Positions 35,575-41,708 of a stretch of DNA of 64,000 nt are shown here, in pieces. Each line of letters starts with the position of its first letter. Within the stretch, counting starts at the first letter, position 1. The DNA lies in assembly GCA_017654855.1 (NCBI GenBank), contig CM030334.1, forward strand, positions 4,030,001 through 4,094,000, given 5' to 3'. The notes below the pieces were generated by a model. That model was not told the DNA's origin and searched no databases. It worked only from the letters and a program-made list of their open reading frames with translations. This DNA comes from Podospora anserina. Taxonomy: Eukaryota. The translations under genes were made by a program, and so were the position numbers.

Positions 35575-36846
35575 ATGTTTCCAGGCGAATCGTTTCTTCT
35601 CCTCTGCTCTTTATCTCTGGCTTTCGCTGGGGTAATTGAGTCTTCCCAACAGCGAGGGTATGTGTCCAAAACCTGTTTAGCAAGTGTTTCAAAACAAGAA
35701 TTAGGTAACGAACCGGCAAATAGGAGCCTCGAGAGACGCCACTGGGCTGTGAGAACCTACACAACAAATCCCCAAATACCGCGCCCTCTCAGTTCTCCGT
35801 CACTTTTGAGACCTCTTACCCCCACAGTTGCGCAGTACCCATCAAAGGCAAATTATATCGTGGATACTCTCGATTTTTTGAGTCGTTTTACATGCCCACT
35901 ACAGTCTTCTCTTAATACGTATGTCTAGGGGGAGCCCAGTTCCTGCTTGCCAAAACTTGGAGTAGTTGTACCACTTCAAACTCCCGAGGAGAATGAGCTC
36001 GTCGAATACTTGGACTACAGATACCCTTCAGCCATCGATAACCTCATACAAAAGGGTCTCTTTCCAAAGCCACTTTCACCATACCTAAAGCAAGGCCCAC
36101 TAACACTCCAGGCCGTACTATCTCTCCCCAGAGACGATCTTCTTGGAATCGGGTACCTGATAGCGAACGACACGGACACGTGCAAGAATATGGAATGTCA
36201 GAATGGCCTGTTCAATCCACTGACTTCAACCTCGCTGAGACCCATCCCAACGCCCATGAAGCAGCACATCAGCAGGATCGATGCCTGGAGCAGAAGTAAA
36301 GCAACCGCAACCGCAACAAGCACAAAACAAACCTCGGTAGCTGTCAGCGCTCAACCTACGCGTGCACCCACACCTATCATCATAACTACTAGCTCAACCG
36401 TCGTCACCACCAACCTCCAGGGCTACACAACTCTCAACCGCGTAACGAAAACAGGAACCCAAACTATAACCCCTTCATCACCAACACCCACCCCAGACCC
36501 AGTCAGTACATACATACTGCAAGAACAAGACAAAGCGGACATCGTCGAGGCATTCTCCTCCGCCATGCCACGTCTCTTTGATCGACTTCTAGCACCAAGT
36601 CCTACCGTAACGGCGACATTGAAAACAAAAGAGATTCCAGCTTCGAAGGTGGAAAGAAAAATAGTAGAGACGTCGATACCCGGGCCTTGGATCGGGGGAG
36701 GCAACATTACTGTGAGGTTTTATGAGGCTAATTTGACTTCTGATGGTGATAAGGAAGAGAAGGTAAATGGGACGGTAGGGAATTTGGTCGGGCAAGGTGT
36801 ATGGGGTTGGTTAGTGGTAGTGATGGGGATGATGGTCTTGCTTTGA
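35575..36846 (+). CDS. Secreted/GPI-type Ser/Thr-rich surface protein interrupted by an in-frame TAG at 35926-35928 (editing-restored gene or recent pseudogene)
   Basis: Signal peptide, frame-preserving 66-nt intron 35658-35723, LERR dibasic site. The same frame continues after the TAG through an S/T-rich region to a hydrophobic C-terminal tail. Confidence 0.7.
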
Positions 36847-37847
36847 CATGGAGGGGACGGTCCACTTCCATTTTCTTCTTCACCGTCAAAGTAGGTAGTT
36901 ATACTAAGGTAGGTAGTTAACACTGAATTACAGAGATATCTTTGCTTGAAAAGAGAGTCTTTTCGGGGCTACTTCTCAACGTAAGTTCAAATTCTCAATA
37001 ACTGAAAGATCAGGGAATTTCGTGACCGGCTCTCTCAGGACTTTTCAGCTCGTCATCATGCCCTGGAATTCAGCATCAGATGCAGCTTTTCTACCCGTTA
37101 TGCAACCCAGGGTTTCAGTATACCTAAGGTAACGGGCCGACTGAGTCCACCCAGACCGCAGCCTCTTGGGTTACATGAATCCACCATGATGGATTCTCGA
37201 AACACAATACCCAAGGTAGGTACGGTATCCGGGCAAGTATTCTAGATGTCAGATTTGGCAAGTAGGTACCTACTCGGAAATGTCAAACGAATGACGTAGT
37301 TACTTTATTGCTGGGTTGTATGGAATGTGTCAGGTGAAACCTGTCAAGAGTCTAAAGATGTGGTTCTCGCTGTTCAATGAAGCCATGGCGCCACGTCATA
37401 GTCAAACTACGGAGATAATGATGATTGAACTATGCCTTTCAGATAATTCAAGCGACGTGTTCGGTACCTACCTTATCTAAGGAGCTCATGATACCAACCT
37501 AGGTGGCCAGCTCGAGTCGACTTGCCAACTAGACCTATTGGCGGAAACCCTTCACCCTCCAAACCTCTTCAAGCCATGGTGATCCTTTCCATTTGCTTCG
37601 GAGAGCCGACTGAAATAACCCCAAGTGAAAATTGGGCGGGAACACAGACTAAACTCACTGTTGGTGTAGGCTGCCATGCCGAAGCCCAATCCTATTTTTA
37701 TCTAACGAGCCTAGGTAAGTATAGGTATACCAGAGAAAGACAACGCCGTGCCATGCCCCGGATCAAGGACACCAGAACCACCAGGCAAAGTCTGCTTCAC
37801 CACCGACCCTCTCGGGCGCTTCTTGGCCCAATGGCAACGAGGCTCAA

Positions 37848-37872: not shown

Positions 37873-38414
37873 TGCATGGTCAACCTTAGCATGACGTGCA
37901 GCTTGCACGTGTTAACAATTCCCAGCCAGATTCGGTCCGTTTGACTGCGGGCATGCTCCCCAGATCAGCAACTCCGGCCGCAGACTGCAGTGCAATGGCC
38001 CGGCACTACTAACCGAGGTGCGCCGTGCCAAGTGCCCTTCTCCACAGACGGGGTTTGTTGTGGTCGCGGGGCCCCGGATTGTGGCGCCCACGGGAGTGAT
38101 CTGGTGTAACGGTGAAAAGACGTTGACGATCTTGGGGAATTTCGCCCTGGAAGACGCACTGAAACGCGACATCGCAAGGCTTTCGCGAGCCAGGTGGTGG
38201 CCTACCTCGGCAGCATAGTTTTTTTTTGAAGGGCCGAGCAAGACGCCGACAAATGTCACCTCCAAAAATGAAGGCTTGGTAGGTCGCCGTGGTCGTCGCC
38301 ATGAAGCAAAAATCTACCTATTTAGGTCCCGGACCCTCGCTGCCATGATGCTCCAAAACACCACCAGCCAGCCTCATCGCCTCCGAAGAGCCCATTCAGT
38401 AACGACTAGCCAAA

Positions 38415-39625
38415 ATGAAGCTGTCATCGACCTTTTCCGTCCTCACGGTGGCCACTCTGGTTCACGGCCATGGTTACCTGACCATCCCGTCCAGTCGGAC
38501 ACGTCTTGGCTCCGAGGTAAGAGCTGCAAGCTGCGAGTTCTCTGGAACCTCAGTACTGACACATGGGCCCAACAGGCTGGCCTTGACTCCTGCCCCGAGT
38601 GCTCCATTCTCGAGCCTGTCTCGGCCTGGCCCGATCTTGACGTTGCTCCTGTTGGCCGCAGTGGACCCTGTGGTTACAACGCCCGCGTGAGCATCGACTA
38701 CAACCAGCCTCGCGCTGGGCTGTGGGGCAACTCTCCCGTCGCCCGCTACTCTCCTGGCCAGACCATCGACGTCCAGTGGTGCGTCGACAACAATGGTGAC
38801 CACGGTGGCATGTTCGCCTACCGTATCTGCCAGGATCACGCGCTCGTCAAGAAGTTCCTCACACCTGGCTATCTCCCCACCGACGAGGAGAAGCAGGCCG
38901 CCGAGGACTGTTTCGAGAGGGGCACCCTTCCCTGCACCGACGTCTCGGGCCAGAACTGCGGCTTCAGCCCTGACTGCTCCCCCGGTCAGCCGTGTTGGCG
39001 CAACGACTGGTTCACCTGCAATGCTTTCAATGCCGGTGACCGTCGCGCCTGCCAGGGCGTTGACGATGCTCCCCGCGGGTCTTGCTACACCTCGATTGCT
39101 GGAGGTTTCCCCGTCACCAAGAAGATCAAGCTTCCCAACATCAACGTCGGTCACACCCTCCTGAGCTTCAAGTGGAACTCGTTCCAGACCGGTCAGATCT
39201 ACCTGTCCTGCGCAGATATTGCCATCGGCGAGGGCAGCGGCACCGTCGACCCGCCTGCTTCGACCACCTTCTCGACTGTCGTCACCCCCGGTGCCTCGTG
39301 TGCTGCCGCCCCGTCGGTGCCTGTCGTCTTCAACGAGAAGGCCACCACTGCCTATGGCCAGAACATCAAGGTTGTTGGCTCCATCGCCGCGCTCGGCAGT
39401 TGGAACCCGGCCAACGCTGTGCCCCTCTCTGCTGCCGGTTACACCAACTCCAACCCCCTCTGGTCTACCACCCTCAACCTGGCTCCTGGCACTTCCTTCA
39501 CCTACAAGTTCATCAGGGTGGACAGCAACGGCGCTGTAACCTGGGAGAGCGATCCCAACAGGTCCTACACCGTTCCTGCTGCCTGCCAGGGCCAGAGCGT
39601 GGCTGTCGATTCCACCTGGCGCTAA
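38415..39625 (+). CDS. Starch-active lytic polysaccharide monooxygenase AA13 with C-terminal CBM20
   Basis: Signal peptide, then mature N-terminal His ([14 protein letters not shown]); intron 38517-38575. [43 protein letters not shown]20 T.YGQNI.VVGSI.ALG.W...WESDPNR...W. Confidence 0.95.
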
Positions 39626-40320: not shown

Positions 40321-41708
40321 ATGGTCCTCGCCAAGTCCTTCGTCCTCAGCTTACTGGCCCTTACCGCTGCCGCCGCCCCCAGCGGCCCAGGTGGAAAGGG
40401 TCCTCACAAGGGCAAGACCCCCAAGGGTTTTGTCACCGTGCAAGACGGAAAGTTCAAGCTCGACGGCAAGGACTTTTACTTTGCCGGTAGCAATGCGTAC
40501 TACTTCCCCTTTAGTGGCGTATGTCATCACCATCCATTCCAGTCACGATCAATTAATATATGCTAACAACAATCAGGACCAATCCGATGTCGAAAAGGGG
40601 TTGACCGCCGCCAAGAAGGCAGGTCTCACCGTCTTCCGCACCTGGGGATTCAACGACAAGAACAGCACATATATCCCGGGTGGTCTTCCACAGTATGGTG
40701 GTGAAGGCGCTGGTCCTTCCGAGGTGGTCTTCCAGTGGTTCCACCCCAACGGCACCTCCACCATCAACGTGGCCGGCTTCGACAAGGTTGTCAAGGCCGC
40801 TGACAAGGTCGGAACCAAGCTGTTGGTTGCCCTGACAAACAACTGGGCGGATTACGGAGGCATGGACGTCTACACCGTCAACCTGGGTGGAAAGTATCAC
40901 GATGACGTATGTACCTTACTCAGAGCTGCCCTTCTTCTCACATGGTGGTGGGATAACTGACAGTGAACAGTTCTACACAGTTCCCAAGATCAAGAACGCC
41001 TACAAGCGCTACGTCAGGGAGATGGTCCTTCGCTACAAGGACTCCCCCACCATCTTTGGCTGGGAGCTCGCCAACGAGCCTCGTTGCGGTGCTGACGGCA
41101 CTCGCAACCTTCCTCGTAGCCCGAACTGCAACCCGGCCGTCATGGGCGCTTGGGTCAAGGAGATGAGCGCCTACATCAAGTCGCTCGATCCCCACCATCT
41201 CGTCACTTGGGGCGGAGAGGGTGAATTCAACCTGCCCCAGGGTTCTGATGACTGGGCCTACGCTGGCGGGAACGGCGGTGACTTTGACCACGAGATTGCC
41301 ATCGACACAATTGACTTTGGTGTGTTCCATTCGTACCCGGACTGGTGGTCAAAGACTGTGGAATGGACACAGCAGTGGATCCGGGACCACGCCGCGGCTG
41401 GTCGCAAGGCCAAGAAGCCTGTTGTCCACGAGGAGTACGGCTGGATGACGCCCGAGGCCAGACTCGAGTACCTCGGAAAGACACACAACTCTACCCGTCT
41501 GGAGGTAATTGGCAGCTGGCAAAAGATCGAGGTGGAGGAGAAGCTGGCGGGAACCATGTACTGGCAGTTTGGGTACGGTGGTTACTCATATGGGCGCAAC
41601 CACAATGACGGCTTCACCATTTACTTGGAGGACCCCGAGGCCAAGGAGCTGGTGTATGGTCATGCCAAGGCTATGAACAAGCTCAACAAGAAGAAGGGTG
41701 GCAGATAG
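40321..41708 (+). CDS. Glycoside hydrolase family 5 endo-beta-1,4-mannanase (GH5_7-like), secreted
   Basis: Signal peptide; introns 40519-40576 and 40907-40970. [25 protein letters not shown], catalytic WELANEP and VHEEYG. Confidence 0.93.

Follow-up and report, generated by a model that had tools for sequence, protein, structure and literature searches.

Cases in which a premature stop codon is corrected at the RNA level are known from Fusarium graminearum, in which A-to-I mRNA editing restores full-length products from genes that would otherwise be classed as pseudogenes. According to Qi et al. 2024 (PMC10776026), 71 pseudogenes of this fungus carry premature stops that are corrected by editing; 43 of them encode hypothetical proteins, 50 contain disordered regions, 55 are upregulated in perithecia, and the genes are lineage-restricted. 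The corrected TAGs of this collection come mainly from TGG, and often from other codons that lie one step away. The early UAG of Neurospora rfk-1 represents a related case. The editing machinery consists of Tad2, Tad3 and Ame1, and editing is common in Sordariomycetes, as stated in PMC11087585. Regarding the sequence context, Feng et al. 2022 (PMC9600606) report that Fusarium sites prefer C or U at position -2, U at -1, G at +2 and A or G at +1, +3 and +4, and that a ±30 nt fold places around 62% of them in the loop of a predicted hairpin, a preference that is not obligatory. Natural stops are also affected, as a preprint (bioRxiv 10.1101/059725) counts editing at 323 of the 1,559 natural UAG stops of edited F. 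graminearum genes. The literature searched contained no survey of editing in a fungus of the Podospora or Cercophora type, and the one Podospora transcriptome preprint does no more than mention ADAT genes.

The gene described here lies in a 64,000-nucleotide stretch of Podospora anserina DNA, which is called the window. With PUK1 and the 71 Fusarium genes described in PMC10776026, it shares one UAG that interrupts the frame of a transcribed Sordariomycete ORF with no other defect, a U at -1 with purines downstream, a lineage-restricted hypothetical protein with a disordered stretch, and a stop that lies one step from a K/E-type codon. It differs from what is reported there in that no edited read has been found, in that neither the stop nor Trp is kept in relatives, in the frameshift carried by a sibling lineage, and in the lack of a hairpin loop. 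A TAG or TGG at the equivalent codon of relatives is usual, although not universal, among such genes, and the relatives of the window gene carry K, E, N or H. Editing rescue at this locus is presented as a candidate of an already known phenomenon. The nonsense allele is real, and the reading that we favour, and to which we would give about an even chance, is that of a young loss of function in a dispensable and rapidly evolving gene, at which any editing would be incidental.

When the window DNA is read in frame, a single reading frame extends from ATG 35575 to TGA 36844-36846 and is split by one premature TAG (aat acg tat gtc TAG ggg gag ccc). The spliced coding sequence comprises 1206 nt, that is, 401 codons plus the stop, of which the premature TAG occupies codon 96, leaving 305 codons open 3′ of it in the same frame. 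No second lesion was found across the 401 codons of the window copy. The preliminary description had proposed two ORF pieces in the same frame parted by the TAG, a 66-nt intron at 35658-35723, a product of about 401 aa and, for the unedited message, an unanchored peptide of about 95 aa. The frame reading and the codon count bear out the first and third of these proposals, the intron is spliced out in RNA contigs of two sequencing runs (X1 and X2), and the TAG does precede both the Ser/Thr-rich stalk and the hydrophobic tail. The position of the 66-nt intron coincides with a gap in the aligned protein of Cercophora samala (P0003). Since its length is a multiple of three and it is free of stops, a bacterial-style ORF list passes straight through it; left unspliced, it would add a 22-residue insertion to a protein that is otherwise the same. 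RNA contigs are colinear with the DNA out to 36949, so the last exon has no further intron. At the 5′ side, the loose end of the X1 contig was matched to the first exon by eye, and the letters AG fit either side of the joint. Ahead of the coding start, an ATG at 35507 begins a short uORF of five codons (ATG ACA GTC TGG TCC TAA). The coordinates of all these features, together with those of the neighbouring genes, are collected in Table 1.

Table 1. Features of the split gene and of its surroundings, in window coordinates
Feature	Position	Strand	Remarks
Large ORF with DUF2828 (E 3e-141) and DUF7788 (E 7e-86)	31387-33699	+	Upstream; ordinary conserved neighbour
Small secreted Cys-containing ORF	34231-34650		
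5′UTR first exon, 3′ part	35215-35246	+	An X1 contig has a loose end at 35492 that matches 35215-35244
5′UTR intron, GT..AG, 247 nt (putative)	35247-35493	+	From the X1 loose end and the sequence; one contig of one run
Exon with ATG 35575	35494-35657	+	Codons 1-23: signal-peptide-like hydrophobic N-terminus (hydropathy maximum at residues 4-23)
Coding intron, GTATGT..AG, 66 nt, phase 2	35658-35723	+	Absent from one contig each of X1 and X2
Last exon	35724-36949	+	Coding to TGA 36844-36846; RNA contigs colinear to 36949
Dibasic RR, candidate Kex2-type processing site	35734-35739	+	Spliced residues 32-33
N-terminal four-Cys domain	35749-36144	+	Very rapid divergence among sibling lineages
GTATGT donor-like hexamer overlapping the TAG site	35919-35924	+	No joint in the three bridging RNA contigs
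Premature amber TAG	35926-35928	+	A35927 is the candidate edited base; context C-U-A-G-G-G-G
Ser/Thr-rich stretch, likely O-glycosylated stalk	36241-36480	+	33-42% S+T; spliced residues 201-280
C-terminal hydrophobic tail, GPI-signal-like or tail-anchor	36796-36843	+	Second hydropathy maximum, residues 386-401
CBM20 ORF (E 5e-36)	38219-39625	+	LPMO_10 sub-threshold (21.3 bits, cut-off 23)
GH5-type hydrolase fragment	40836-41708		

The evidence for the transcript comes from Logan contigs of four runs, which were aligned to window positions 35400-37000. Three of the runs (X1, X2 and X3) belong to the same organism, X1 and X2 carrying the same organism label and coming from two studies, while the fourth (X6) belongs to a second organism, referred to as organism B. 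No run listed as containing the stretch is recorded as RNA. Contigs of X1 and X2 skip exactly 66 nt with GT..AG ends, which establishes both that these runs are RNA and that the intron is real. The TAG is bridged in X1 by a contig covering 35846-36882, in X2 by one covering 35839-36949 and in X3 by one covering 35789-36045, all of them extending far beyond 31 letters on either side of the stop and aligning with 0 differences, 0 gaps and no joint; further X3 contigs (36029-36283 and 36426-36909) also show 0 differences and 0 gaps. Transcription of the gene continues, the coding intron and, as one contig implies, the 5′UTR intron are removed, and the TAG is retained in bulk mRNA. The base at 35927 is A in 3/3 same-organism runs, in contigs that keep the majority base and from runs whose stage is unassigned; as minority variants are dropped from such contigs, partial editing would be invisible in them.

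The translation has the hydrophobic termini, the RR, the Cys residues and the Ser/Thr stretch that had previously been proposed for the protein. Only two segments are strongly hydrophobic by hydropathy, spliced residues 4-23 and 386-401, and the final 17 residues are hydrophobic or Gly throughout. The RR dipeptide is the sole [KR]R of the protein, and it is kept as ARR in both distant orthologues, P0003 and P0011. Four Cys lie in the mature part, the first pair being invariant across 5/5 aligned sequences, and the column of the TAG sits within the conserved C-x16-C loop. Towards the C-terminus the protein contains a conserved block, SIPGPWIGGGNITVRFYEA. No Pfam family matches the window protein at E<=1, and the structure models are of low confidence (AlphaFold2 mean pLDDT 36.7 from a 5-sequence alignment; Atlas model pLDDT 0.34). 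In its N-terminal signal, Ser/Thr-rich middle and hydrophobic tail, the protein resembles KRE1 (PF17056) and other fungal GPI-anchored Ser/Thr-rich wall proteins, and a language-model feature search placed KRE1-type and other cell-wall clusters nearest, at 0.87-0.88, values below the 0.9 bar that make this likeness a lead only. It differs from KRE1 in having no Pfam match at E<=1; the likeness is one of architecture, and GPI attachment would be putative.

Relatives of the gene are few. A search with the read-through translation (P0001, in which the TAG is read as W and the intron is included) returned two proteins among 8000 candidates scored: P0003, a hypothetical protein of 417 aa from Cercophora samala (KAK0668938.1, E 5e-109) that aligns end to end, and P0002, a 299-aa ORF that is nearly identical to another ORF, P0007, and starts only at a TTG after the TAG site. 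A region-restricted repeat of the word search gave nothing beyond these earlier matches (2/297 candidates). An exhaustive HMMER profile scan of 1.84 billion representative proteins yielded 7 matches at E<=0.001; two of these are repeat proteins, and four are orthologues, complete or partial, that come from other organisms or are fragments. Judging from these two proteins and seven matches, and from the lack of a Pfam domain, the family is, at the level of sequence, small and lineage-restricted. Its nearest named homologue is that of C. samala, a member of the Sordariales (Sordariomycetes). P0007 is a continuous ORF of 365 aa with homology on both sides of the TAG, and P0011, a distant orthologue of 318 aa, has the same layout and is also continuous across the TAG column. 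As both flanks of the TAG match single continuous proteins (P0003, P0007 and P0011), the two pieces in the window constitute one gene.

At the column where the window has its stop, P0007 carries K (TYVKEEPSFC), P0004 carries E (TYVEGEPTPC), the C. samala protein P0003 carries N and P0011 carries H, so that neither W nor a stop is present in any of the four relatives that cover it (0/4). A transversion at the first position is all that separates TAG from AAG or GAG. With sense codons in 4/4 relatives, the stop is derived and allele-specific, and the column unconstrained. A lineage-specific nonsense mutation had been named beforehand as an observation that would speak against editing; the confinement of the stop to this allele bears this out in part, and it is not decisive in view of the origins of corrected stops given in PMC10776026.

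Close relatives of the window gene are known as five ORF forms: P0007, P0004, P0002, P0006 and P0005, the last being the window's own allele. Just one of the five, P0007 (1/18 contigs), has an uninterrupted frame, which covers the gene from directly 3′ of the intron as far as its usual stop. P0004, from a single contig, shifts frame after DTCK through the loss of one A at about 36190, as read against the window DNA, and P0006, again from one contig, comprises the last 75 residues only; P0002 likewise comes from one contig. Because A-to-I editing cannot mend the frameshift of P0004, at least one sibling lineage seems to be without the full-length protein. No protein search returned a window-type ORF open across the TAG. 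To see whether the haplotype of P0002 stops at the same codon, the initial 59 residues of P0007 were looked up exactly, with no match, and since the 117-aa N-terminal ORF of the window is itself absent from that resource the look-up had no power; of the 117 pattern matches to P0007 in a metagenome scan, none was confirmed.

The divergence is spread very unevenly along the protein. Between the window and P0007, 40 of 132 residues differ over codons 59-190 (P0001 numbering), versus 4 of 233 in the remainder, and the boundary between both regions (35749-36144 versus 36145-36843) is sharp and falls at about 36145. In P0004, a third haplotype, the differences are likewise mostly N-terminal. Such a distribution could come about through diversifying or balancing selection on the four-Cys domain, through introgression there, or through old alleles that several species share. 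RNA contigs of organism B (X6) match the P0002/P0007 haplotype, with which they share V401A and M417I, and allow a comparison of 527 nt of coding DNA with the window. There are 12 differences in total, two of them without a listed place; the 7 listed coding differences comprise 5 synonymous and 2 non-synonymous changes, a small count in which both lineages are mixed, and a hand binomial of 5:2 against the 3:1 neutral expectation gives about 0.013. The comparison suggests that the C-terminal half was under purifying selection at some point along the window or organism B lineages, perhaps before the TAG arose or in the other lineage.

Repeat-induced point mutation (RIP) was considered as the cause of the TAG and of the N-terminal divergence, and rejected. 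The N-terminal changes relative to P0007 comprise 21 transversions and 18 transitions, the latter balanced in direction (9:9), along with 3 multi-step and 2 ambiguous changes, and the TAG itself is a transversion from AAG or GAG. As a separate observation, the segment 35551-37658 has TpA/ApT and (CpA+TpG)/(ApC+GpT) ratios of about 1.0 each, versus 0.56 and 1.31 in the whole window, and its GC content falls to 0.46-0.50; just 0.16% of 457-nt windows are as extreme as 35724-36180 on both of these RIP-type indices, which are locally raised. A further fragment, P0010 (61 aa, aligning at about 36619-36792 and differing from the window by 13 residues), was at first sight a RIP-mutated copy, and this too was rejected: its 15 base changes are all C>T and occur in every dinucleotide context, and changes that ignore the neighbouring base are those of a bisulfite-converted-library artefact.

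Among the stop codons, TAG alone becomes a sense codon through one A-to-I edit of an A that follows U. Scored against the Fusarium consensus (C/U at -2, U at -1, A/G at +1, G at +2, A/G at +3 and A/G at +4), A35927 has a favoured neighbour everywhere between -2 and +4 (C-U-A-G-G-G-G; six of six), a better fit than the editing-favoured context that the preliminary description had reported. The same six-of-six motif is found at 17 of the 866 TAGs of the window (2.0%) and at 34 of its 29,434 A's. In the predicted structure, A35927 is not in a hairpin loop and instead forms a pair at the foot of a weak stem of the ±30 nt fold, which is itself unremarkable (z +0.61, with 142 of 200 shuffles at least as stable); a second fold has a z of +1.36.

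According to the reading that we favour, a lineage-restricted Sordariales-type gene encoding a secreted surface protein (signal peptide, RR site, four-Cys domain, Ser/Thr stalk, SIPGPWIGGGNITVRFYEA block and hydrophobic tail) would have acquired a fixed amber when one base was substituted in the first position of a codon that is hydrophilic and variable; the ancestral-type codons would be those of the relatives, an AAG-type K, a GAG-type E, N or H. With the TAG kept in bulk mRNA, ordinary translation would yield a precursor of 95 residues devoid of the second Cys of the first pair, of the stalk and of the anchor, and the gene would be undergoing repeated loss among sibling lineages. We infer both the loss of function and the dispensability from the unspliced TAG in the RNA contigs of 3/3 same-organism runs, the lack of W or a stop at the column in relatives (0/4), the single open form among the five close-relative ORF forms together with the frameshift of P0004, the tiny family devoid of a Pfam domain, and the position of A35927 outside a hairpin loop. 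Several observations weigh against it. The window copy has no second lesion and keeps 305 codons open, and the stop is a TAG whose six-of-six Fusarium motif occurs at only 17 of 866 window TAGs. Moreover, the C-terminal half looks constrained in the comparison with organism B, the short P0002 and P0006 ORF calls may have other causes, and, by analogy, natural UAG stops of edited F. graminearum genes are themselves edited, at the frequency (323/1,559) given in the preprint cited above. If the mRNA is present in fruiting bodies, that frequency would make some editing here quite possible, and, taken together, the motif, the identity of the stop as TAG and the unbroken frame 3′ of it place the odds of editing well above those of a random stop. 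The main competing explanation, which we consider possible and still rather unlikely, is that Tad2-Tad3-Ame1 would convert A35927 into inosine in fruiting bodies, turning UAG into UGG (Trp), so that the full-length anchored protein of 401 residues would be made only in sexual development and vegetative cells would make the truncated peptide. The complete context, the intact 305-codon frame and an mRNA that is transcribed and spliced with its TAG are all in accordance with this explanation, as are a nearest named homologue from the Sordariales, within a class in which editing is common (PMC11087585), and a resemblance to the 71 Fusarium cases, described in PMC10776026 as mostly hypothetical (43/71), disorder-rich (50/71) and lineage-restricted; Trp may also be tolerated at a column as variable as K/E/N/H. 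It is opposed by the lack of A>G in 3/3 bridging RNA contigs, a weak point given that contigs keep the majority base, by the lack of W or TAG at the column in 4/4 relatives, by a sibling-lineage frameshift that is beyond repair by editing and argues that the gene is dispensable, and by the position of A35927 outside a hairpin loop; in addition, the literature search returned no editing catalogue for a close relative. In a more far-reaching version of the editing explanation, a recently born editing-corrected stop would have arisen from a Lys/Glu-type codon, not from Trp, in a hypervariable, recognition-like domain displayed only in the fruiting body, and P0002, from the 30%-divergent haplotype, may hold a stop of its own within the same ~22 codons; this version we regard as unlikely.

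The remaining explanations fare worse. That the truncated product is itself functional, as a secreted peptide of some 60-75 residues after signal-peptide and RR cleavage with the downstream frame left as a relic, or that low-level readthrough at UAG-G yields a small amount of full-length protein, would agree with a message that is kept and spliced and with a signal peptide and RR site lying 5′ of the stop; nevertheless, the peptide would retain one unpaired Cys of the pair that is invariant in 5/5 aligned sequences, no relative ends at that point, and we know of no readthrough context at this UAG; this option is improbable. Even less credit can be given to a stage-specific intron that would start at the 35919 GTATGT donor and remove the TAG in another tissue. 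A consensus donor hexamer does overlap the stop, yet the joint is found in 0/3 bridging RNA contigs, so that splicing escape is not the main form, as had been doubted from the start; the in-frame acceptors would leave an intron of either 102 nt or 21 nt, the latter much shorter than fungal introns are, and P0003, P0007, P0004 and P0011 all encode the residues that such an intron would remove. As for a sequencing or assembly error, which the preliminary description had named as a possible refutation, its probability is close to negligible. Two studies contributed the three runs whose RNA contigs contain the same TAG, P0005, a 299-aa ORF opening at the next start codon 3′ of the TAG and matching the window at 100% identity, occurs on 14 public contigs, and six genome-sized runs from three studies, one of which may be the source of the window, contain all sampled words of the stretch.

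Beyond the Fusarium genes, the locus can be set against ordinary unitary pseudogenes or segregating nonsense alleles of fungal orphan genes. With these it shares a derived, lineage-specific stop at which orthologues have sense codons, independent lesions in close relatives, fast evolution, a narrow distribution and the lack of a known domain. It departs from an ordinary pseudogene in having one lesion only, in being transcribed and correctly spliced, and in a stop context found at 2% of TAGs. Should editing be true, a Sordariales case outside Neurospora and Sordaria would join the Fusarium-centred catalogue of corrected stops, and it would be a very young stop of non-Trp origin in a rapidly diversifying surface protein, which would help to ask how such stops arise; under its more far-reaching version, editing would have been caught letting stops recur in a gene under diversifying selection. 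If editing is false, the locus represents ordinary orphan-gene decay, and it warns that a perfect motif around a TAG does not amount to evidence of editing.

Two of the profile matches, P0009 (2251 aa) and P0012 (2329 aa), are very long proteins with 7 profile-matching stretches apiece. P0009 contains a unit, recurring about every 150 residues, that resembles YPSAIDNLIQKGLFPKPLSPYLKQGP with ~30-34% identity over 35-47 residues, a likeness that may reflect a shared small module or chance similarity. Regarding the surroundings of the gene, no Rfam family matches 34800-37600 at E<=1, and the flanks (Table 1) are ordinary gene-dense DNA, in which the CBM20 ORF downstream is probably a starch-active lytic polysaccharide monooxygenase gene.
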